A stretch of 64,000 nucleotides of DNA from a virus: IMG/VR virus record IMGVR_UViG_3300022602_000029, positions 96,001-160,000 of that record; one strand, 5' to 3'. The notes beneath the pieces are model-generated. The model did not search any database and was not told the DNA's origin. It saw nothing but the letters and a program-made list of their open reading frames with translations. Each line of letters begins with the position of its first letter. The stretch's first letter is position 1. A program made the position numbers and the translations under genes. Positions 17,819-44,390 of this stretch are shown one piece after another.

Positions 17819-18043
17819 TCAACCAAAGGCACGCAATAACCCTACAACCATTATGGCTATTGATATCACGTTCACTGTCAGCTGTGGGCGATTCTTGACC
17901 CGATAGGCCCAGAAGGTAAAGGCCGCTGTGCCTACGGTGAAGCTCACGATGTTCCAGGGATAGGCCGCGGGCCCCACGCTGTTGAGTGCATGCCCTAGTA
18001 CTATGAGTACTGCGCCCGCCCACTGCACATGATCTAGCTTCAT
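17819..18043 (-). CDS. small multi-pass membrane protein
   Basis: Three hydrophobic segments; ATGA coupling. Confidence 0.7.
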   Translation of the reverse strand: MKLDHVQWAGAVLIVLGHALNSVGPAAYPWNIVSFTVGTAAFTFWAYRVKNRPQLTVNVISIAIMVVGLLRAFG

Positions 18044-18312
18044 ACCACTTCCAACATGTTAGCTGGCACCTTCCAGAGACCCTCTGTGGTGCTGACCGTG
18101 ACGTATTTCTGTGCGATCTTGGTCACACTGCCCTGCATGGTTCGGCCGCGCCGCACGCTGTTAAAGGTCACTGCCTGCCCTAGGCGTAGCCCGCGCTTGT
18201 TTTCAGAGATCAGCCTGTGACGGGCGAACTTGACAGCTTCAGTGATGGTGTTCAATTCATCATTAGTGAACGAACCATGGATGATGGCTTGGTTGACTTG
18301 ATCGATGTTCAT
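18040..18312 (-). CDS. early hypothetical protein with SH3-like C-terminus
   Basis: GQAVTF...GSVTKIAQKYVTV...WKVPANML. Confidence 0.7.
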   Translation of the reverse strand: MNIDQVNQAIIHGSFTNDELNTITEAVKFARHRLISENKRGLRLGQAVTFNSVRRGRTMQGSVTKIAQKYVTVSTTEGLWKVPANMLEVV

Positions 18313-18358
18313 GAGTGCTCCTTAAAAAAACTTAGTATACTATCGGTTTTACCATTTG

Positions 18359-18763
18359 TCAAGCTTCTTTATAGTGCTTCCACTTGTTGTGATCTCCTGC
18401 TCGCTTGCCTTTTTCCGAATGGCATAAACTACAGAGTTCCTGTAGATTTTGTGGACGATTGTCCGTGTTATCACCGTTCTTGTGATCTACTTCTGTGCTT
18501 AGTTTAAAGCCTGTAGATGCTACCAAGTCCCAATCTACTACACAGGGGAACCCTAGCCTGCTATTAATGTTAGAACAACGATTTTTCTTGAACCTTTTAA
18601 CCCCCGGAGCCAATGGATAATCCATATAGCTGTTCTTGTGACAAGTGCCGCAGAACACTCTATATCTCACATCTGATCCACCTACTCGTCCCCTCTGAGT
18701 GGCGCAGAGACTGCCACAGCCTGGGTTGATACAGATCGGTCTAAAATGTAATACTCGTCCCAT
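18359..18763 (-). CDS. Zn-binding HNH endonuclease-like protein
   Basis: EVDHKNGDNTDNRPQNLQELCSLCHSEK plus CxxC pairs. Confidence 0.8.
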   Translation of the reverse strand: MGRVLHFRPICINPGCGSLCATQRGRVGGSDVRYRVFCGTCHKNSYMDYPLAPGVKRFKKNRCSNINSRLGFPCVVDWDLVASTGFKLSTEVDHKNGDNTDNRPQNLQELCSLCHSEKGKRAGDHNKWKHYKEA

Positions 18764-18816
18764 AAGTCGCTCCTTGTTAGTCTATGTCGCTATTATACTG
18801 CCAAAATAAAGACCCT

Positions 18817-19137
18817 TCAATCTCCCCGGGTATCAGTGTTGAGCTCTGGGCGCAACTGCCTGCGTAGCTCCACTTCTCTGCGGTGCGCCTCGGCCTTGCC
18901 CCTGATGACTTCTAACACTGCTACAGTGATCTGGCTCTTGTCCTCTAGCAGCCTCAGCACTGAGCAGAGGCTCCAGTCCTTGGCCTCCGTGTGCGCACGA
19001 TAGAAGTGCTTGGCAGCACGGGTCCTGGCGCTTTTCAACGCTGTAGACTCTGTCTTAGCCGTGACACCCACGTAGCGCAGTGTGCCCACTGTCAGCTGAT
19101 AGATCACATGATTTCGATCGGTTCTTTTCTTTCTCAT
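18817..19137 (-). CDS. GIY-YIG-like nuclease
   Basis: HVIYQL......YVGVT, R...H and E motifs. Confidence 0.65.
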   Translation of the reverse strand: MRKKRTDRNHVIYQLTVGTLRYVGVTAKTESTALKSARTRAAKHFYRAHTEAKDWSLCSVLRLLEDKSQITVAVLEVIRGKAEAHRREVELRRQLRPELNTDTRGD

Positions 19138-19200
19138 ACACATATTATACAGTCGGTTTTACCATTTGTCAACCCTATGCTTGTAAAGATATGTAAAGCT

Positions 19201-19461
19201 TCAATCAGTAGGTCCCTTCTGCACCCTAGCCGCGGGATCTCCTCCGAGGATCCTCTTGATCTCAGTATCTGGATCACCCCGGGCCCTGGCCGATCTCCAT
19301 TCCGTTTCTCGCTGCTCGTCCTGAGCGCTGTCCTCTGTATACTGTCCGGGGCACACAGCATAGTCTGAATCACAGGCCGTGCCCCACAACAGCTCCGCTA
19401 AGACCCAGATCAAGAACACCACGAGGAACATGGTTTCTAGGGTCCAATCCGTCTTTTTCAT
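19201..19461 (-). CDS. early membrane-anchored hypothetical protein
   Basis: N-terminal TM segment; AAGGT upstream. Confidence 0.5.
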   Translation of the reverse strand: MKKTDWTLETMFLVVFLIWVLAELLWGTACDSDYAVCPGQYTEDSAQDEQRETEWRSARARGDPDTEIKRILGGDPAARVQKGPTD

Positions 19462-19475
19462 AGTTAGATACCTTC

Positions 19476-19745
19476 TTTGATCTTAGAGAAACCCCGGCAG
19501 GACCTTCACGATCCCTGCCGAGGCTCAATCTGGGCTACTGCTAGTTCAGTTCCCAGAGCCCTCCTCCCCGTTTATGACTACCTCATATACGGTATAGCAC
19601 GCGGCTGCCTCCGCGAGGATTCTAGCACAGCACGGCTCCATGATGATCGCTCATCTCAGCTAGGCTGCCTCCTTAGTTCCGGCGCTTATCTAGACCACGG
19701 CAGCGGCTAGATCAAACCCGGGATTCTCTGTGCTATAGGCTTATA
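19476..19745 (-). ncRNA. candidate structured non-coding RNA or long leader (family not recognised)
   Basis: Follows promoter 19752-19780; end-to-end helices 19720-29/19485-94 and 19709-16/19476-83; hairpins at 19495-19520, 19600-19615, 19660-19676. Confidence 0.5.
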
Positions 19746-31790: not shown

Positions 31791-31798
31791 TATAAATA
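31791..31798 (+). promoter_or_regulatory. T4-late-type promoter heading the radical SAM operon
   Basis: Exact TATAAATA, then AAGGA RBS before 31827. Confidence 0.75.
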
Positions 31799-31826: not shown

Positions 31827-32933
31827 ATGGTAATTGACTTAAACGTAACAAGTACATGCAATCTAGCGTGTACTTATTGCTCTGAGGGATACGAGTGCGG
31901 CCTATCAACTGCCTATGAAGAAAACACAGAAGTAACGCTGGATGATATAGAGCAATTTATGGCTAAGATAGATGATCCTAAACGAGACATATATTTCTGG
32001 GGAGGTGAACCTTTTGTAAACTGGGAATTCTGCCGAGGAGTGATGGAGAAATACAAGGATGATCCTAACTATAACTTTTTCTTTTATACCAACGGAGTCT
32101 ATCTAAAGAAATATCTAAAAGAGCTGGTACGTTTCCATGAAGCTATGCCAAATAGGTTAAAGATACAGGTTAGCTATGACGGTAAACCTGTTAATGATAT
32201 CACACGTATAGATAAAAAAGGAGATCCCAGCAGTAGATTGGTTAAGAGTAACTATCTAGCGGCTAAGAACGCAGGGTTGAATGTCAAAATGAAATCTGTA
32301 TTAACCGCAGAACATTTCCATCTTATATATGAGGCTTTTCTTGATGTAATCGAGCTGGACGATAACTACTTCCCTACGCCTGATATGTATAGCCAGCTTA
32401 CATGGGAAGAGTTTCAACCCAAATTAGAAATACTCAAGGAAGGACTGGCTAAGATAGCCAAATACATCTATGTGAACAAATTGCCTCCAGAGAAGTTTGG
32501 TTGGTTCACACAGTCACGTGCTCTATGCGCAAGCGGCATTAACTATGTGTCAGTTGATTTGAATGGCGATATCAGTCCATGTCATGGTTGTATGTATAAA
32601 GAATCACATGCGCATGTCATGGGCAATATATTACAAGCACCAGACATAGACGCTTTGATTAAAGAAAAGACTCAGATGTACAAAGATGCTCTGCAGAATC
32701 AACCTCTGGACTGCCAGTCATGCGACAGTCAGTTCTGCATGAAGTGTAATGCCGCTACGTTTGAAAAAAGTGCAGGCGAAACATATCTAGACAAATGGAG
32801 TGATCATACCAGTAACTGGCAGGTATGTAGAGTGTTCAAGGCTAACGAAGTTGTACATCATGCCCTACGCACAGCTTTAAAAAGTTATAAGAAACCAAGA
32901 TTTGAAATAAAGGCAGAACAATGTTCACTCTAG
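31827..32933 (+). CDS. radical SAM/SPASM domain protein 1
   Basis: CNLACTYC, WGGEP; SPASM CASG...GDISPCHGC...CQSCDSQFCMKC...C. Confidence 0.93.
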   Translation: MVIDLNVTSTCNLACTYCSEGYECGLSTAYEENTEVTLDDIEQFMAKIDDPKRDIYFWGGEPFVNWEFCRGVMEKYKDDPNYNFFFYTNGVYLKKYLKELVRFHEAMPNRLKIQVSYDGKPVNDITRIDKKGDPSSRLVKSNYLAAKNAGLNVKMKSVLTAEHFHLIYEAFLDVIELDDNYFPTPDMYSQLTWEEFQPKLEILKEGLAKIAKYIYVNKLPPEKFGWFTQSRALCASGINYVSVDLNGDISPCHGCMYKESHAHVMGNILQAPDIDALIKEKTQMYKDALQNQPLDCQSCDSQFCMKCNAATFEKSAGETYLDKWSDHTSNWQVCRVFKANEVVHHALRTALKSYKKPRFEIKAEQCSL

Positions 32934-34045
32934 AAATATCAGTAACAGAAAAATGTAACTTAGGATGTCCCTACTGTTACGTTGCTAATCGTCCTACATG
33001 GATGGAACCGGAAACATTTGACAGAGCTTTACCAGAGTTATACAAACTAATGAATCGCAGTGGGGATGTTGACTATCATGTCAGTTTCTTCGGCGGTGAA
33101 CCCTTGCTTAACTTTGATCTGATTAAACATGCTGTTCCTAAGCTAGCCGCTGATCCTAAATGTAAAGGGATCAACATCATAACCAACCTCACTATGATAG
33201 ATGAGGAAAAAGCCAAATACCTAAAAGAAAACAATGTCGGGGTCAGTTGGAGCTTTGATGGGATGAGCAGTAATGAAACACGACCATTATTGCCTTTGCT
33301 AGAAAATACAAATCCAGAAACAGGAGAACTGTTTAATGGTATCTTGGATATGTACAACTATAAAAAAGATCTAATCACTGATCTTACTAACGGCTGCAAG
33401 GTCATGATATGGCCGGGTAATACCAAAGACATGACTGAGAACTTTGAGTTCTTACTAGGCTGGGGAATCGAACATCCGGATTTTAGTATTGTTCGTGATG
33501 ATGTTTGGACTAGAGATGATATAGTTGAGTTCAGATATGAATGCGAGAGATTAGCCGACGCATGGATCATCAAGATCAAAGAAGGCATTCCTTGTAGTGT
33601 AGGATTCCTAAGACTAGCGATCCTAGATATATTATTTGGGTTAGTTAAAGGTAAGAGACAGTTTGGTTGTTTCGCAGGAACTAACGGCGGTGTGCTAATG
33701 AGCAGTGGAGAGTTTTATCCATGTGCTCGCTTCGCTAGTAAAAAGATAATGAAGATGGATGAGCAGTATGATTTCAAGTATTATCAAAACATATTTAATC
33801 CTGGAAGCTATGACAAATGTCAGCCTTGTGATCTTAAGCAGGTATGTAACGCAGGATGTACCTACAGCCAAGTTATGAATGATAATAAACCTTTAGATTC
33901 AGTTTGTGAACTATTTCACATCTATTATGAACAGGCTATGAGAGTAGTAGCCGCATGTAGGAATGAACCTATCTTCCAAGACCTAATATTACATTACATT
34001 GAAAACGTAGGTGTAGAATCAGAAGGTGTAGAATGCAGGAACTAA
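32921..34045 (+). CDS. radical SAM/SPASM domain protein 2
   Basis: CNLGCPYC, FFGGEPLL, SFDG; CFAG...GEFYPC...CQPCDLKQVCNAGC...C. Confidence 0.95.
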   Translation: MFTLEISVTEKCNLGCPYCYVANRPTWMEPETFDRALPELYKLMNRSGDVDYHVSFFGGEPLLNFDLIKHAVPKLAADPKCKGINIITNLTMIDEEKAKYLKENNVGVSWSFDGMSSNETRPLLPLLENTNPETGELFNGILDMYNYKKDLITDLTNGCKVMIWPGNTKDMTENFEFLLGWGIEHPDFSIVRDDVWTRDDIVEFRYECERLADAWIIKIKEGIPCSVGFLRLAILDILFGLVKGKRQFGCFAGTNGGVLMSSGEFYPCARFASKKIMKMDEQYDFKYYQNIFNPGSYDKCQPCDLKQVCNAGCTYSQVMNDNKPLDSVCELFHIYYEQAMRVVAACRNEPIFQDLILHYIENVGVESEGVECRN

Positions 34046-34350
34046 AAAAGAAAACCTATCGCAGTTTGGCAAGTATTCCTGTCAAGGTAGAGATGCAGCC
34101 CGTTGAACATGCTACTGATCGTGTATTGACTACAGAAGAACTACAAGAGCAGATAGAAGAAGCACGTAAAGGCAAGGCCAAGGTAGATAGTAAGTATGTA
34201 GGTTTCGAGTTAGATGAACGCGGACATCTATTTGAATATAAACTAGACTATGTTTCTTTTTTATCCGATATGAGTTATATCATCAAAGAAGCTAAAAAGA
34301 GACCAAAAGAAAACAGATACAAAAATACTCACGAGATGATTATACAATGA
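34033..34350 (+). CDS. small accessory protein in radical SAM operon
   Basis: Overlaps both neighbours; no recognised motif. Confidence 0.65.
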   Translation: MQELKKKTYRSLASIPVKVEMQPVEHATDRVLTTEELQEQIEEARKGKAKVDSKYVGFELDERGHLFEYKLDYVSFLSDMSYIIKEAKKRPKENRYKNTHEMIIQ

Positions 34351-35240
34351 TACCCATCATACAGGAAAATCCAGGATTAGGTTTCTATGTAGGAGATTCT
34401 ACAGATAAACCCACACCTGTAGGGTCTGGTGTGAATGTAATCTATTTTACGAATAAATGTAATCTGGCCTGTACCTACTGCTATGAAGATCTTCCAGGTC
34501 GTCCTCCGCAGATAATGACGCGAGAAGATATACGTAAATCAATAGATATGATATTATCCAGAGAGAATCCTGATAACCAGACCTTGATAGTATTATTTGG
34601 AGGAGAAGCTACTCTAGAATGGGAAAATGTCTGCTACTGCATGGAGTATGCCTACAGTAAAAAGACTAACATACACTTTAATCTCACTACTAATGGTATA
34701 AAATATCTCAGTCAAAAGTTTATCGACGAAACTAAAACTAACTTTTTCTACAGTATGGGCCTATTAAGCATAGATATCAGCTTTGATGGTGTTGGTAATG
34801 GGGACAGAGTATTCCACAACGGATCGGATTCTACCCTTTCTATGATCAGAGTTTTTGGAAATCTCTTGAAGAATAACGTGAAGTTTAGGATAAGATACAC
34901 TATGCATCATAGAAATATCAATAATATCTATGAAGATATATCTATGATCATCAATAAGTTCCGTCCTACGAGATTAATCACCAGTGTAGCCTGGGATACA
35001 TTACAAGACGGTGATAGATCTAAACTAGAGTCAGCAAAAGAACTGTTCAGAAAAGACTGGATAAATAAAAAAATAACTATTCCTGTCTGCGAATTCTTTT
35101 GTGATATGTGTAGCGGATGCGGAGAGAGGAAAGAATTGAAAACATACTACACAGATGAAGGTAACGTAACTACTTATGGTAACTATGAAAACGCTCCAAA
35201 GTTCCATGATTTTAAAGAAAAGGTAACAATATGTCAGTAA
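34347..35240 (+). CDS. radical SAM protein 3 (short Cys tail, no full SPASM)
   Basis: CNLACTYC, FGGEATL, TTNG, SFDG; CEFFCDMCSGC. Confidence 0.92.
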   Translation: MIPIIQENPGLGFYVGDSTDKPTPVGSGVNVIYFTNKCNLACTYCYEDLPGRPPQIMTREDIRKSIDMILSRENPDNQTLIVLFGGEATLEWENVCYCMEYAYSKKTNIHFNLTTNGIKYLSQKFIDETKTNFFYSMGLLSIDISFDGVGNGDRVFHNGSDSTLSMIRVFGNLLKNNVKFRIRYTMHHRNINNIYEDISMIINKFRPTRLITSVAWDTLQDGDRSKLESAKELFRKDWINKKITIPVCEFFCDMCSGCGERKELKTYYTDEGNVTTYGNYENAPKFHDFKEKVTICQ

Positions 35241-35605
35241 TCGAAAAAATGAACCAAATAGCGTCTCTGATAGGTGAGATCAAACAGGAAGATGAAAATG
35301 CTGGAAATCTTCTGGCAGAAGGGTTTCTTCTATCAGCTAAACTAATGCAGGAGATAACAGAAGCTGGAAATAGAGACAAGATTGATATTTCAGAACATTT
35401 AGCGATGATCGGAAGAGTTTTTGGTTTCACCGTGGAAGACCTAGTAAAATTTGTATTACAGAATAACTTCCAAAGCGTCGAATCAGACAAAGAACCTGAT
35501 CCGGCCACATTAGAATTTATAACCAGCGATCTAGACGACTATGAAAAATTCTTAGCACAGAATAAAGCAAAGGAAGACCTAGATTTCCTATCTAAGGAGA
35601 TTTAA
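35231..35605 (+). CDS. small acidic accessory protein
   Basis: In operon immediately before the Cys-rich gene. Confidence 0.65.
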   Translation: MSVIEKMNQIASLIGEIKQEDENAGNLLAEGFLLSAKLMQEITEAGNRDKIDISEHLAMIGRVFGFTVEDLVKFVLQNNFQSVESDKEPDPATLEFITSDLDDYEKFLAQNKAKEDLDFLSKEI

Positions 35606-35607
35606 AA

Positions 35608-36396
35608 ATGACCTATTGTTCTTGCCTAGCCTGCGGTTCAGTTTGCTGTAACGCCACTGGCGGGGGTACTTGTGGACCTCAAGGATGTTGTGCTTCCTAC
35701 GCTACAGCCTCATTAAGTTATAGTACAGGTATATGTGGCGCCGGAAGTTGTTCCTACACACCTACTTCTCTATCAGGAGTGATCTGTGGAGCTTGTTTTT
35801 GCCAACTATTGACTAATGTCTGCTGTGAAATGTGTAGAAGGAATCGTAGTGCTCCTAGCGGATGGGGACAGAGTAATCCTATTAATCACTCTGATTTTAA
35901 CAGTTTGGTAAACTATATCAACCAATCTAGTTGTTGGCCTGCCGCTTGCTATCAAAGCTATTGTAATGGTAGTACGACTCCATGTAGTCAATCTAGTGCT
36001 GGAGCTCCATCGGGGGTTCCCGCAAACGCTAACGCAGGAGATGTAATTTATAGTAGCTGTATAAATGCCTTAGTCAGCGCCATAGTTACTGCTGGTAATG
36101 CCTGTACCTGTAACTGCAACTACTGTACATGTAACTGCAACTACTGTACCTGTAACTGTAACTATACATGTACCTGTAACTGTAACTACAGTGATATCAG
36201 ATTGAAAAAGAATATCAAACTATTGAAAACTATTAAGGGTATAAACATCTACAGTTTTAACTATGAATGGGATGACACAGAACAGATAGGAGTGATGGCA
36301 CAAGAATTATTAGAATCAGGACATGACTATGCTGTCACTACAGATTCGAATGGGTTTTATATGGTTGATTACAGCAAACTACCAGTGAAGATGTAA
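35608..36396 (+). CDS. Cys-rich (CTCNCNY)x4 protein fused to Peptidase S74 intramolecular chaperone; candidate radical SAM substrate
   Basis: 33 Cys in first 194 aa; SDIRLKKNI...GVMAQEL S74 signature begins at residue 195. Confidence 0.85.
   Translation: MTYCSCLACGSVCCNATGGGTCGPQGCCASYATASLSYSTGICGAGSCSYTPTSLSGVICGACFCQLLTNVCCEMCRRNRSAPSGWGQSNPINHSDFNSLVNYINQSSCWPAACYQSYCNGSTTPCSQSSAGAPSGVPANANAGDVIYSSCINALVSAIVTAGNACTCNCNYCTCNCNYCTCNCNYTCTCNCNYSDIRLKKNIKLLKTIKGINIYSFNYEWDDTEQIGVMAQELLESGHDYAVTTDSNGFYMVDYSKLPVKM
36103..36189 (+). repeat. four in-frame 21-bp repeats (TGTAC[C/A]TGTAACTG[C/T]AACTA[C/T])
   Basis: Copies at 36103, 36124, 36145, 36169; differences are synonymous. Confidence 0.95.
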
Positions 36397-36405
36397 GGAA
36401 GTAAA

Positions 36406-36804
36406 ATGGATTATAAAGAAGTAGAAGGAATAGATGCTAACACATACGCAGGTAAAGCCGCTCAGGCCTGTAAGGTAAAAGCGAGAGGTATATTGGGAGA
36501 TGATCTTTTAACTTTTAAACTTATTGATTTTGTATCATTTATTATGATAAACAATCGGTTTTTAAATAAAGGGATTATCATAACTGATGAAAACAAAGAA
36601 GAAGGATATATCAAGATTATAGAAACAGGAGATGAATCTCTAATATCCGATCTAGAAAAGTACCTAGATCTTAGGGATAGTATTAAGAGTATAGAAAATT
36701 CTAAGAATGAATACTCTGATATCATCAATAAACTTAAATCATTGCAGGATCATAATGATAGAGATTCAGTCAATGCTATAGTCGAAGAATATCTAAGACG
36801 ATAA
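36406..36804 (+). CDS. small helical accessory protein
   Basis: AAGGAAG RBS; directly follows the Cys-rich gene. Confidence 0.65.
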   Translation: MDYKEVEGIDANTYAGKAAQACKVKARGILGDDLLTFKLIDFVSFIMINNRFLNKGIIITDENKEEGYIKIIETGDESLISDLEKYLDLRDSIKSIENSKNEYSDIINKLKSLQDHNDRDSVNAIVEEYLRR

Positions 36805-36820
36805 GTTATAGGAAAAATCA

Positions 36821-37828
36821 ATGTTAATAATAGTAAATACGATCGATTCAATCAATAGAAATCTTATAGGATTACGACTATTAGAAACATTCAACGACTT
36901 TAAGATAGACAACTTGACTGTGAAGATTGAAGGAATGGCCAGCAGTTTAACTAACTATGTTCTATATAACGAACAAGGATCAATAGTATATCCTACAGAA
37001 CCAGTTGATACAGATGCTTTGGAAAAACTTATATCTTTCCAAAACGATAGACTGTCAATAACTAGATCAGACCTACTAATCAAATTAGATTTTGCTTCTG
37101 TTGAGCATGATTATGGAATATTAAATAATCCTATCATGGAAAATCTAGATCAACCGTTAAACACTTACGAAGCTCAGTTAGATGCTTATCGTAATGATAG
37201 CAATAGTTGCAGAGTGATCGTTGGTATTTTTGGAAAATGGTTCATAGACAAGATGAGACAAGATATAGGAGCCGATAAGGTCAAGGTCCTAAATATTGTC
37301 AGGAATCCATCTGTTTGTTTTGTCTTAAATCAGACTCAAAATAAACAAAACGATCTATTTAAAGAATATAAACATTTAAGAAAATCAATATTAAATGCCG
37401 TAAGTTTATCTAGATTTGATGATATCACCACAGTCAAGTTTGAAGATATGTTATCATCAGGATCGATAATCTTTGATGGTGTTACTATCACATTACCTGA
37501 ATCGTATCAAAACCATAATAATCTGTTGACAGCATACGAATATCATAATCTGATATCTAAAGCTACTGATCAAAATCTAGATCAGTTTAACCAAGAGTAT
37601 TCAAACTACGAATTAGATCATTTTGTAGATATTACCGCAGAAGAAAAAACACAACAGACTCCGCCTCCAATCGGACTTTACGGATTTGTAAAAATTAAAG
37701 ATCATATCACTTTTACAAATCAAAAACTTGGATTAAATATTGCCGAGGAGACATTGACTCCTTTAAGCATGAACATTTTTACATCTCTCGGATATAATCC
37801 GTTATCACTTTCTCAAATATCTAGTTGA
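36821..37828 (+). CDS. possible sulfotransferase-fold protein
   Basis: KVLNIVRNP and VKFEDM resemble sulfotransferase motifs; P-loop not clear. Confidence 0.4.
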   Translation: MLIIVNTIDSINRNLIGLRLLETFNDFKIDNLTVKIEGMASSLTNYVLYNEQGSIVYPTEPVDTDALEKLISFQNDRLSITRSDLLIKLDFASVEHDYGILNNPIMENLDQPLNTYEAQLDAYRNDSNSCRVIVGIFGKWFIDKMRQDIGADKVKVLNIVRNPSVCFVLNQTQNKQNDLFKEYKHLRKSILNAVSLSRFDDITTVKFEDMLSSGSIIFDGVTITLPESYQNHNNLLTAYEYHNLISKATDQNLDQFNQEYSNYELDHFVDITAEEKTQQTPPPIGLYGFVKIKDHITFTNQKLGLNIAEETLTPLSMNIFTSLGYNPLSLSQISS

Positions 37829-38769
37829 GATTTAAAAATATCGAGCAGTACAAAATGTCTAAGATATTTAATCTCAAGCAATATGATCTAGTCTTCACTA
37901 CTTCGTTTTATATCAAACACGGAGTGTCTGGACACATGTATGAGTTGATTGATTATTATTATATTTGTAAAAAGTCTGGAATCAACTGTGCTATCCTTTT
38001 AGCAGACGGCGTTGACAAACAAACATTTTTCAATGCGATCAAATACAAATACAACTTTGACATAGATATCCTAAAGGATACACACCAATGTCATAACCCT
38101 AGAATTATTAGAACTAAGAATATCTGCATCGTAGATGGTTCCTGGAGAGTTAATGACTGTACAATATATGCAGACAACGCATTCTTATTAAGATGCTCAG
38201 AAGACGACTATACTTGGTTTGATACCAGTAAGTCAATTAAGCAAACACATCTTATGCAGGACTTTAAACTGTATCCAGAACGATACCGAGACTTAAACAT
38301 TAAGGTTGTTGATTATGTTAAGAAAATACTTTGGAGCAAATATGTACAGCCCAAACCGACTAATAACGATACCGGTTTGTTTTATCTAACAACTAACTGT
38401 AGAGCAATCCCTGCAGAAGAAGTTAAAGCTATTATGGATAAGGGTATATGTACAAATTATATTATAGTCACTGACCGTCCTAATCTTTACCAACCTCTGT
38501 TGGCTGATAATGTATCTATAGCACAGGCTCCATTACAGAATATATTTGAACATTTTGACACCTACATATATACTAAGACAGAATTACAGTCTGATTGCAG
38601 TCCTAGGTTTATTGTTGAGTGTGCTATGTTTGGTAAAAACGTTGTTTACGAAATTGATTATCTATGCGCAGGTGTAGAACGTAGAAAACAGGACATAGAT
38701 GCAGACTTATCAAGTTTAGAATTAACTACAGATGATTACTTTGTAGAATACGTAAAACAGTTTATATGA
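37825..38769 (+). CDS. GT-B (GT4-like) glycosyltransferase-like protein
   Basis: C-terminal DCSPRFIVECAMFGKNVV; start may be ATG 37855. Confidence 0.5.
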   Translation: MRFKNIEQYKMSKIFNLKQYDLVFTTSFYIKHGVSGHMYELIDYYYICKKSGINCAILLADGVDKQTFFNAIKYKYNFDIDILKDTHQCHNPRIIRTKNICIVDGSWRVNDCTIYADNAFLLRCSEDDYTWFDTSKSIKQTHLMQDFKLYPERYRDLNIKVVDYVKKILWSKYVQPKPTNNDTGLFYLTTNCRAIPAEEVKAIMDKGICTNYIIVTDRPNLYQPLLADNVSIAQAPLQNIFEHFDTYIYTKTELQSDCSPRFIVECAMFGKNVVYEIDYLCAGVERRKQDIDADLSSLELTTDDYFVEYVKQFI

Positions 38770-39818
38770 TACCTATTAGAACAGAGTCCAATCATCTCGC
38801 TGAATTAAGTTCCGCAGGGCTAGAGCTTGATCTTATAACACAACCCTGTGTTCGTGCTAGATTAGATACAGGTACATTTTGTAATTACGACTGTGAGTTT
38901 TGTTACTACAGAGATAAACTAGATGTTAAGACAGAGTTTGATATTGTAAAAGAACGTGCAGACTATTTGCTTGCCTACGGTATCAAACAAGTAGACCTAA
39001 GTGGAGGAGAAAGCTCTGTAAGCCCTGATTGGTTTAAGATACTAGACTATTGTAATGAACGCTTTGAACACGTTAGTTGCCTAAGTCACGGAGGTAGATT
39101 TGCCAATATTGAATTCCTACAGGAGTCAATGGAGCATGGACTAAAAGAAATCTTGTTTAGCCTACACGGAGCAACAGCAGAAACACATGATGCTATTACC
39201 AATCGTAAAGGATCCTTCAAACGTATCCTTCAAGCAATCAAGAATGCACAAGAGCTAGGATGTGTAGTACGAATTAACTGTACTGTCTATCACAAGAACT
39301 ATCATCAACTGGTAAACATCTATGCTGACCTAATTAATGGAATCAAACCTTTAGAAGTTAATTTTATTACATTAAACTATTGGGATGATGTTTACATTGA
39401 TAATGTTACCTACAAAGATATGACTGACAACATTAAAAGTTGTATTGATATCTTAGACAAGGGTATGATCATCAATGTCCGTTATGTGCCTTATTGTTAC
39501 ATGAAAGGCTATGAGAAATATGTGTGTGATCAATATCAACACATATACGATATCTATGATTGGAATAAGGAAATGTATTCTAATGTGATTGATGTTAGTA
39601 AAACCTATACACAGGAACAAAAGATACAGTTTGCCTATGATGCTTGTAAGAAGTTTCGTGCTAGGTTTTATCGTAAACAAGTTGATTGCCTGAAGTGCAA
39701 ACACTTCTATATTTGTGATGGTATTGAAAGAGAAATAGCTGACAAGAATCCTGTGTTTCCAGAAGCAGGAGATAAGATCAAACAGGTTAATTTTTATAGA
39801 GCAGTACATTTCAAATGA
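38766..39818 (+). CDS. radical SAM protein 4
   Basis: CNYDCEFC, LSGGE, FSLHG; C-terminal CLKCKHFYICDG. Confidence 0.93.
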   Translation: MIPIRTESNHLAELSSAGLELDLITQPCVRARLDTGTFCNYDCEFCYYRDKLDVKTEFDIVKERADYLLAYGIKQVDLSGGESSVSPDWFKILDYCNERFEHVSCLSHGGRFANIEFLQESMEHGLKEILFSLHGATAETHDAITNRKGSFKRILQAIKNAQELGCVVRINCTVYHKNYHQLVNIYADLINGIKPLEVNFITLNYWDDVYIDNVTYKDMTDNIKSCIDILDKGMIINVRYVPYCYMKGYEKYVCDQYQHIYDIYDWNKEMYSNVIDVSKTYTQEQKIQFAYDACKKFRARFYRKQVDCLKCKHFYICDGIEREIADKNPVFPEAGDKIKQVNFYRAVHFK

Positions 39819-43316: not shown

Positions 43317-44390
43317 ATGGCAGACTGGAAAAAACTAAAGATAGTTAGAGATAAAGAGGACATGCAGGTCGGGCAGATTAGACCGATGCGTTCTTATAAC
43401 GTGCTCAGCGAAATAGAACAGGGCGGTATTGACTATGACTATATGGTTACTTTCCGTATCACAGAAGCTTGCGATCTAAAGTGTAACTACTGCCATTGGC
43501 ATAGCGGAGCACATTACAAATATGAAGACATCATAACCACTATTGATAGATTATTTGATTTTTTTATCAAACAAGATTTTAAATCTGTACTATTTTATTA
43601 TCATGGCGGAGAACCTACTCGACATCCTAGATGCCTAGATATCCTAAAATATATACACCAAAAAGGTATAGACAAAGGAATAGATGCCTATAACGAGATG
43701 CAGACCAATCTTACCATTAAAGAAGATAAACTTCGTGCTATGCTCCCTTATTGCGATCAGTTTAATGCCAGTTTTCATTATTTAGAATTAAAAAGATTAA
43801 ACAAACTTAAAGACTTTGACCACAACTGGGAAGTTATTAAGCAGTTAGAAATACCTATCCATAATATGGATATAATGATGGAGAATGTTGAACGAGGGGA
43901 TAGATGGTATCAAGGTAAGACTGTAGAGGTCATACCTGAAGAGTTTTATAATAAAGTAGTCGATTATCTTAAGTATGACAAGATCCAAAACTGCGAGATG
44001 ATCTATGGATTTTGCCATTATGTTTATCCGGAAGATGTAGCCGAAAAGCATATGGCATTTTATAAACAGCATAACAAAACAGAACAACGATACGAGATAG
44101 ATGATATTATATATACCACCAACGACCTATTCAAACTAGGTATAGATGCACGCGGATGGAAATGTGCGGCAGGTCAGGAATCTATCACTATCAATGGAGA
44201 TGGTAATGTTTTCCATTGCGGAATACATATGACAAATTTTATACGTGATAGCCAGCCCGAGACTCCTTATACCAATCTAGTTAATGACAAACTCGCGATC
44301 ACCAAACTATCAGTGCTGTATAAAACAGGTACTATCTGTCGCTGGGATTATTGTGGCGGAGATTTCTATCTCAGTAGGGGCCCAAAATGA
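43317..44390 (+). CDS. radical SAM protein 7 (twitch-like tail)
   Basis: CDLKCNYC, HGGEPT, QTN; CAAG...GNVFHC...CRWDYC. Confidence 0.92.
   Translation: MADWKKLKIVRDKEDMQVGQIRPMRSYNVLSEIEQGGIDYDYMVTFRITEACDLKCNYCHWHSGAHYKYEDIITTIDRLFDFFIKQDFKSVLFYYHGGEPTRHPRCLDILKYIHQKGIDKGIDAYNEMQTNLTIKEDKLRAMLPYCDQFNASFHYLELKRLNKLKDFDHNWEVIKQLEIPIHNMDIMMENVERGDRWYQGKTVEVIPEEFYNKVVDYLKYDKIQNCEMIYGFCHYVYPEDVAEKHMAFYKQHNKTEQRYEIDDIIYTTNDLFKLGIDARGWKCAAGQESITINGDGNVFHCGIHMTNFIRDSQPETPYTNLVNDKLAITKLSVLYKTGTICRWDYCGGDFYLSRGPK

Follow-up and report, generated by a model that had tools for sequence, protein, structure and literature searches.

A viral cysteine-heptad protein with a minimal S74 domain is a candidate substrate of three neighbouring radical SAM enzymes

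Introduction

The presence of a short, unchanging cysteine motif, repeated four times just ahead of a predicted self-cleaving domain, raises the question of what purpose the cysteines serve. The protein in question is encoded at 35608-36396 on the plus strand of a 64,000-nucleotide stretch of viral DNA (hereafter the window), which covers positions 96001-160000 of the single 193,746-bp record IMGVR_UViG_3300022602_000029 (IMG/VR class linear; CheckV completeness 54%). The record encodes a DNA ligase and a DnaB-type helicase, the latter only about 51% identical to its nearest phage relatives. The heptad protein, at 12.6% Cys (the proteome median is 0.86%), is the product of the most Cys-rich open reading frame (ORF) of the genome. 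The start codon ATG follows the stop of the upstream ORF by 2 nt, and an AAGGAG (35594-35599) stands 8 nt before the ATG.

The strongest clue to the purpose of the cysteines is a trio of radical S-adenosylmethionine (rSAM) genes next to the heptad gene, which an earlier note on this DNA, made from the letters alone, did not weigh. On balance, we lean towards a chain of events in which the three enzymes staple a virion-type protein and the C-terminal S74 domain removes itself from it.

A conserved heptad array ends directly before the first residue of the S74 domain

The gene and its parts are as follows.

35608..36396 (+): Cys-heptad/S74 coding sequence, 262 amino acids (aa), 12.6% Cys
35608..35754 (+), aa 1-49: N-terminal Gly/Ser/Cys-rich segment, 10 Cys
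35770..36102 (+), aa 55-165: conserved helical body, with 11 Cys that homologues do not have
36103..36189 (+), aa 166-194: heptad array (three CTCNCNY units, Thr187, one CTCNCNY unit), 12 Cys
36103-36123, 36124-36144, 36145-36165 and 36169-36189: the four CTCNCNY units (aa 166-172, 173-179, 180-186 and 188-194)
36187..36192 (+), codons of Tyr194-Ser195: predicted scissile bond (from S74 homology, MyRF [PMC8326128], and natural stops in loci L036 and L039-46)
36190..36393 (+), aa 195-262: minimal Peptidase_S74 (intramolecular chaperone auto-processing, ICA) domain, no Cys

The earlier note had described four 21-bp repeats that differ at synonymous positions only, and this is what the codons show: third positions vary (ACC/ACA, TGC/TGT, TAC/TAT) and the peptide stays CTCNCNY. 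It had also placed the end of the repeats directly against the S74 domain, and SDIRLK indeed begins at Ser195, right after the unit at aa 188-194. All four units are present, but they are not strictly tandem, as a 3-bp ACA (Thr187) stands before the fourth. A recount of the translated sequence gives the same Cys totals as that note, 33 in aa 1-194 (12 in the repeats and 21 in the body) and none in aa 195-262.

A search of 5.8 billion proteins (metagenomic) returned 680 homologues of similar length, and the conservation figures given here refer to the best 120 of them. The array is conserved, with four heptads in 106 homologues and 3-12 in the remainder. Its Cys are all invariant and its Tyr nearly so. 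Over 505 heptads, T occupies position 2 in 81% (else L, V, S, or I), N or D occupies position 4 in 91% and 7%, N position 6 in 97%, and Y position 7 in 99%. The spacer before the last heptad is also a family trait: a single residue, mostly S or A, is found there in 118 of 119 homologues. Of the 120 homologues, 113 have the exact junction Tyr-SDxRLK, and the other 7 have one additional residue there. Across the family as a whole, the unit keeps its seven residues and its copy number ranges from 3 to 28. The total of 33 Cys, correct for this protein, is misleading for the family: every Cys lies within the array in 85 of the 120 homologues, 95 have no body Cys, and the 21 body Cys are found in this protein only. 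The Cys-rich body is real, because two independent assemblies, one of a JGI metagenome and one of a Logan run, gave the identical 262 aa. A chance origin of the array is excluded, since it recurs in 680 homologues and the 193.7-kb genome, read in every frame, holds no C.C.C.[YF] heptad besides these.

Judging from where its members are found, the family is viral. A scan of prokaryotes with one genome per species (185,579 species) gave six loci, all of them on contigs of metagenome-assembled genomes (MAGs). Neither the locus nor the protein had a match among 50,697 phage records (megablast and tblastn), although the low-complexity filter may have masked the repeat; relatives in Campylobacter phages surfaced only through a search with rSAM2 and a scan for the heptad pattern. 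A literature search on the motif gave nothing relevant.

The body that precedes the array is built of the pattern x-I-x-A-x-x-x-N-x-L, repeated three times, and also has an E-x-x-R-R motif; it is homologous to the other bodies of the family (E-x-x-R-R, P-I-N-H-x-D-F-N). The suggestion of the earlier note that three motifs (aa 56-71, 89-104, and 144-159) form a repeated scaffold holds for the family as a whole, which shows an internal triplication (hhalign segment-to-segment probability 95-97%). In an AlphaFold2 model built from the 120-sequence alignment, each of these motifs opens a confident helix (helices 61-77, 94-104, and 149-164; pLDDT, the predicted local distance difference test score, 80-93). 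The first 49 residues have no confident fold in the model and are not kept among homologues. The S74 domain is modelled with a pLDDT of about 95 and the array with one of about 40. The low value of the array fits a segment that is structured by crosslinks, metal, or partners, and would not discriminate between them. Foldseek found no match to the whole model in the PDB at E<=0.001, and the body gave no convincing match to a solved structure, the VIA wide search returning generic helical matches only (Z about 5 or less). A trimer prediction with three copies of aa 135-262 scored 0.01, with controls not run, and speaks neither for nor against a trimer.

Three radical SAM genes accompany the heptad gene

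The genes around the heptad gene are the following.

31827..32933 (+): rSAM1, radical SAM protein with CX3CX2C at aa 11 and a variant SPASM-like Cys set
32921..34045 (+): rSAM2, radical SAM protein with CX3CX2C and a canonical seven-Cys SPASM motif (CX2CX5CX3C at aa 300)
34033..34350 (+): orfA, 105 aa, located between rSAM2 and rSAM3 and translationally coupled; kept only in the gene order of the window
34347..35240 (+): rSAM3, radical SAM protein with CX3CX2C at aa 38, a short C-terminal four-Cys cluster motif, and no full SPASM
35231..35605 (+): orfB, 124 aa, acidic (isoelectric point 4.3), syntenic in loci of the window type
36406..36804 (+): orfC, 132 aa, phrog_25260, directly 3' of the heptad gene in most loci
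36821..39818 (+): orf335, orf314 (phrog_24441), and rSAM4 (phrog_27238), syntenic in loci of the window type

The upstream genes of this cassette overlap or abut stop to start. To follow their linkage, we used a sample of 46 IMG/VR loci (about 29 distinct) taken from the scan for the heptad pattern, with flanks of about 10 kb. All three rSAM types adjoin the heptad gene in about 26 of the 29 distinct viral loci and in five of the six MAG loci. The order of the window (rSAM1-rSAM2-orfA-rSAM3-orfB-heptad-orfC) recurs in loci whose heptad proteins are only about 40-60% identical. More distant loci, with 6-28 heptads that are often CTCDCNY, have the order rSAM2-rSAM3-rSAM1-heptad and keep all three types, and L038 has rSAM1-rSAM3-rSAM2-heptad. 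The main argument that the enzymes act on the heptad protein is that the linkage survives these rearrangements.

Among the small ORFs, orfC is the only one found 3' of the heptad gene in both gene-order groups. It is longer in the divergent loci, around an invariant core G...Y...L...D, and its AlphaFold2 model (pLDDT 91) is all-helical, has no match in the PDB, and is not a winged-helix RiPP recognition element (RRE; RiPP, ribosomally synthesised and post-translationally modified peptide). The next three genes, orf335, orf314, and rSAM4, are absent from several divergent heptad loci, and their link to the heptad protein is uncertain. Downstream of the cassette, further radical SAM genes (38766-39818 and 43317-44390) alternate with ORFs that have no annotation; several divergent heptad loci lack these genes too. 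A 423-aa ORF in the same accessory island of the phage (47828-49099, plus strand) matches Pfam Trp_halogenase (E 1e-66) and is thus flavin-dependent halogenase-like.

The best NCBIfam matches of rSAM1-3 are maturases that form Cys thioethers in peptides: PapB, SCIFF, CcpM, and CXXX-repeat enzymes. PapB, a ranthipeptide maturase, is the best match of rSAM1, below the cut-off, and the same model hits rSAM2 with an E of 9e-37 (127 bits; cut-off 340). Pairs of Cys with Asn and of Cys with Thr are among the acceptor types of ranthipeptide and SCIFF enzymes. The PapB study describes the joining of Cys to an Asp acceptor (PMC9413430). We consider it probable that the heptad array is the substrate of rSAM1-3. 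The coincidence of three Cys per heptad with three types of enzyme suggests, as far as motif counts can, one enzyme per Cys position.

Several observations weigh against this assignment. The PapB scores of the three enzymes (127, 81, and 72 bits) are far below the cut-off of 340, as are those of the other equivalogs. An RRE was looked for in the cassette and none was found: rSAM1 and rSAM2 lack an N-terminal extension (their rSAM motif begins at residue 11-12), the Atlas yielded no useful lead for orfA or orfB, and orfC is the helical protein described above. At three distinct heptad loci (L013/14, L018/19, and L023), no rSAM gene lies within the examined flanks. Four more rSAM genes and genes for sugar modification share the island of the cassette, and the structure of this island could partly account for the adjacency. 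Lastly, TATAAATA at 31791-31798 (+), 29 nt before rSAM1, was considered as a T4-type late promoter and not used as evidence; it occurs five times in the window, for 6.7 copies expected, and 23 related loci lack it upstream of rSAM1.

The explanation that competes best is a Cys ladder that needs no enzyme, in which the 36 Cys of a trimer assembled by S74 would form disulfides between the chains, as in the cystine knot of collagen III, or Zn, Fe, or Cu thiolate clusters, and the rSAM proteins would act elsewhere, e.g., on the sugars of the island or on another protein. The composition of the array speaks for it, with 41% Cys at a CxC spacing that resembles metallothioneins and other metal-thiolate sites, and T4 gp37 offers a parallel, as it binds Fe through repeated HxH motifs along the trimer axis. 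Four large fibre-type ORFs of the genome are also Cys-rich (4-5% against the median of 0.86%), which suggests a general stabilisation by Cys, and the three loci without a neighbouring rSAM gene and the four additional rSAM genes of the downstream island point the same way. The non-Cys positions of the heptad (T, N/D, N, and Y) are nearly invariant, unlike those of metallothioneins, which argues against a plain metallothionein. Moreover, rearranged loci and very distant phages keep the trio beside the heptad gene, which is not so for orf335, orf314, and rSAM4, and the best matches of the trio are maturases of Cys peptides and not sugar enzymes. We therefore regard a ladder of this kind as unlikely, if still the first of the alternatives.

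The four large ORFs lie outside the window (G000:C1 26551-35172, 44996-52585, 59407-61782, and 61784-65176) and encode proteins of 2873, 2529, 791, and 1130 aa. They are made of repeats of about 14 residues (N-T-x-x-G-x-x-N-x-A-x-G) and contain 121, 103, 34, and 58 Cys, respectively, at variable positions. The last two end in a full-length S74 domain with a coiled coil. It would seem that every fibre-type protein of the phage is enriched in Cys, and the 21 extra body Cys of the heptad protein may belong to this enrichment rather than to the rSAM system. They may also serve as extra crosslink sites.

The minimal S74 domain and its predicted cut

The C-terminal part is an S74 domain, as the earlier note had stated. 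It matches Pfam PF13884 at aa 195-236 (E 2.8e-8; 34.4 bits for a cut-off of 22), and a profile search within its own genome gave 37.8 bits. The S-x-x-R-x-K centre starts at the first residue of the domain, with Ser and Lys five residues apart, and S195, D196, R198, K200, Y215, and Y219 are invariant in the 120 homologues. In MyRF, the cut falls at P586|S587, the mutations S587A and K592A abolish cleavage, and S587/K592 are equivalent to S911/K916 of endoNF (PMC8326128). S195, R198, and K200 match S587, R590, and K592 of MyRF. The modelled domain has 12 matches in BFVD at E<=1e-3, with 38-46% identity and a root-mean-square deviation of about 2.2 A across some 65 residues, both sides being predicted structures; among them are proteins named intramolecular chaperone auto-processing domain. 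Taken together, cleavage at Tyr194|Ser195 is likely.

A point against a cut is the lack of the C-terminal coiled coil, which in MyRF is the main force of trimerisation and has to be present for cleavage (PMC8326128). Only 68 aa run from Ser195 to the end of the protein, and this tail measures 65-79 aa in all 120 homologues; the coiled-coil helix is present in the two large S74 proteins (791 and 1130 aa) encoded elsewhere in this genome. The domain also matches solved ICA structures weakly (7dc3, Z 3.3; 3gud, Z 3.1; VIA wide search), and searches of PDB sequences with the protein, the family profile, and a profile of the S74 part found no S74 structure. These features would be expected if the minimal S74 were never cut and served as a permanent C-terminal oligomerisation domain, with the heptads as an internal linker. 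Yet the invariance of S195, D196, R198, and K200 is hard to explain without catalysis, and the short subtype of the domain also terminates fibre-type proteins of 650-960 aa (P0124, P0126, P0128, and P0130, one of which is named tail fibre protein), so that it is likely functional. Natural variants that end at the predicted cut and split versions that retain the Ser/Lys stub on the substrate, both described next, also speak for cleavage. This leaves an uncleaved domain as quite improbable.

What follows the array differs between relatives. At L036 (9827-10453), the ORF stops right after ...CTCNCNY and has no S74. At L039-L046 (e.g., L039:9884-10516), it stops one Ser later (...CNCNYS), again without S74. 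In both cases, a 141-aa DUF6356-like membrane ORF comes next (PF19883, E 4e-6). At L009 (9489-11821) and L032 (9131-11994), there are three or four tandem heptad paralogues, each ending in a 12-aa stub S-D-E-Q-[LV]-K, and a separate downstream ORF of 88 aa matches positions 16-54 of PF13884 (E 0.009-0.016, below the cut-off). Similar S-D-x-x-[LV]-K stubs occur at L051 and L055. From its sequence, the arrangement at L009 and L032 looks like a split S74, in which a Ser/Lys stub borne by the substrate would be completed by a trans-acting body that serves several paralogues. Two metagenomic proteins carry yet other sequences after the array. P0125 (463 aa) has a Hint_2 match ten residues past it (27.2 bits, cut-off 28.4), and P0129 (851 aa) has the body and arrays of the family followed by a Hint-like start, C-F-L-A-G-T, recognised by eye only. 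These suggest that a self-splicing domain of the Hint type may replace S74 as another self-cleaving module.

The array is thus regularly the last element before a stop codon or a self-removing module, and all the variants would fit a mature protein that ends in the heptad repeat. The earlier note had proposed such an end for the protein studied here: natural variants do end at ...CNCNY or ...CNCNYS, and in this protein the end is a predicted one, placed by homology of the cut. The same note had called S74 a follower. This does not hold in the RiPP sense, since the variants with a stop codon and with a split S74 keep their rSAM neighbours. S74 is dispensable for recognition by the rSAM enzymes because rSAM-linked homologues occur without it, with a split version, or with a Hint-like domain. 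By this comparison of natural variants, S74 is best described as a folding and cleavage device and not as a follower of the RiPP kind.

Relatives in Campylobacter phages and the phage particle

The scanned loci include the Campylobacter phages CP21 and CPt10, and the heptad protein is carried by 15 Firehammervirus records. Named relatives are CPT_0180 of CP220, CPt10_1891, CP21_105 (534 aa; L047:3992-5596), and gene 3-9 of IBB_35. They share with the family the helix that precedes the repeats and the CTC[N/D]CNY array (hhalign 99.3%, E 2e-20, 51 columns). They differ from the protein of the window in having no S74, a further Cys-rich C-terminal extension past the array, and a different body. 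A homologue of rSAM1 lies 3 kb downstream of the Campylobacter heptad gene, in a differing gene context.

CP21_105 is annotated as a putative N-acetylneuraminate pyruvate lyase. This name is doubtful because the gene encodes a heptad protein without support from Pfam (no match at E<=0.1), and it is probably an annotation error that was carried over to phage WX1. The 21-bp repeat of the Campylobacter phage gene had been noted in 2010 in a study that read the rSAM genes of these phages as metabolic and did not connect the two (PMC2853527).

Gene 3-9 of IBB_35 (17884-19488; 60,318 Da) is among 38 particle proteins identified by electrospray ionisation tandem mass spectrometry (PMC3322345 Table S2). 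We find it at positions 8498-10102 of contig 3. The coverage of 2.6%, i.e., roughly one peptide (PMC3322345), tells against placing much weight on this detection, which is weak experimental evidence for a heptad protein in the virion. Together with the S74 domain, it makes a virion location of the heptad protein fairly probable. A product outside the virion, either a RiPP-like factor released against hosts or competitors or an Fe-S/electron carrier for the rSAM enzymes, is very improbable: it would suit a gene placed in an accessory island, well away from the genome's structural genes, a body without a known fibre fold, and enzymes that need an Fe-S supply and a reductant, but S74 is known from phage fibres, spikes, and neck appendages (the BFVD matches are such proteins), the relative in a Campylobacter phage is on record from virions, hardly any cellular genome contains the family, and the carrier or ferredoxin version is rated low for the lack of any ferredoxin-type Cys motif and the presence of S74.

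Proposed sequence of events and its significance

The stapling that we favour would proceed in three steps. First, rSAM1-3 would act on the unfolded chain and turn the Cys of CTCNCNY into thioether staples, with neighbouring side chains as acceptors; the near-invariant Thr, Asn or Asp, and Tyr are the candidate partners. Then, if homology is a guide, the minimal S74 would gather the chains and cut between Tyr194 and Ser195 by means of Ser195 and Lys200. The result would be a mature protein of 194 aa whose C-terminal tip is the stapled 29-residue heptad array. The anatomy, the conservation, the linkage of the genes, and the exchange of self-removing modules behind the array can be seen in the sequences; the stapling, the cut, and the place in the particle are inferred from them.

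A wider statement can be made only tentatively: many phages (aquatic T4-like and jumbo phages, and the Campylobacter Firehammerviruses) may staple a particle protein of their own, with a CxCxCxY tip that is exposed by an interchangeable module (a minimal S74, a split S74 in trans, or a Hint-like domain) or by a plain stop codon. In the present phage, the substrate would have grown from 12 to 33 Cys. A literature search on SPASM, thioethers, and virions in phages found no paper on crosslinked virion proteins. A cyanophage study calls an rSAM maturase an "antibiotic synthesis gene" and names no substrate (PMC12801897).

If the proposal is true, viruses would harden or functionalise a particle protein by the radical SAM thioether chemistry that had been described for small antimicrobial peptides and, in 2026, for a single protein of an archaeon, and RiPP chemistry would serve to build a virus particle. 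It would also give a function to the surplus rSAM genes of Campylobacter phages (11-12 per genome) and of many aquatic phages. The family is large, and its rules can be read from natural variation (a fixed unit of 7 residues with three Cys, 3-28 copies of it, and three enzymes). What S74 is for can be asked of the interchangeable C-terminal modules, a natural experiment whose clearest case is the split S74, and the cultured Campylobacter phages make the idea of stapling directly testable.

Comparison with known systems

The S74 domain resembles those of endoNF (phage K1F), the GA-1 neck appendage (3GUD), and MyRF (7DC3) in its C-terminal position, the PF13884 match, the S-x-x-R-x-K centre, and the predicted ICA fold. 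It differs from them in its length of 65-79 aa and the lack of a coiled coil. Upstream of it is a Cys heptad array and not a documented triple beta-helix, and its carrier is a helical protein of 194 aa instead of a long fibre or spike. In the heptad relatives, the domain can also be absent, split into two genes, or replaced by a Hint-like domain.

Collagen III trimers are locked by a cystine knot. What this knot and the HxH-Fe needle of T4 gp37 would share with the heptad array is a short motif of regularly spaced ligands or crosslinks where a trimeric fibre ends. Their residues and spacing are different, and they have no dedicated enzymes.

PapB/PapA (freyrasin), CteB/CteA, and NxxcB represent the best NCBIfam types of rSAM1-3 and share the SPASM Cys and Cys that stand beside Asp, Asn, or Thr. 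Compared with these ranthipeptide and SCIFF systems, the scores here are far below the cut-offs, the candidate substrate is a 262-aa protein without a leader peptide, no RRE was found, there are three Cys per seven residues, and the enzymes are three paralogues.

The closest experimental precedent for a whole-protein substrate is CrpC/CrpA of Methanococcus voltae, reported in 2026: CrpC, a SPASM enzyme, adds ranthionine thioethers to CrpA, a large protein with Cys repeats, and the links were shown by losses of 2 Da that inversely matched alkylation (PMC13692751). CrpA has a repeat of 17 residues (C-x-x-Q/D) and one enzyme with a fused RRE, whereas the viral protein has a CxCxCxY unit of seven residues, three enzymes with no RRE found, and a C-terminal domain that is predicted to cleave itself. 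What the two have in common is a whole protein as substrate, a C-terminal array of Cys repeats, an adjoining SPASM rSAM gene, and an N-terminal region outside the Cys repeats that probably serves for recognition.

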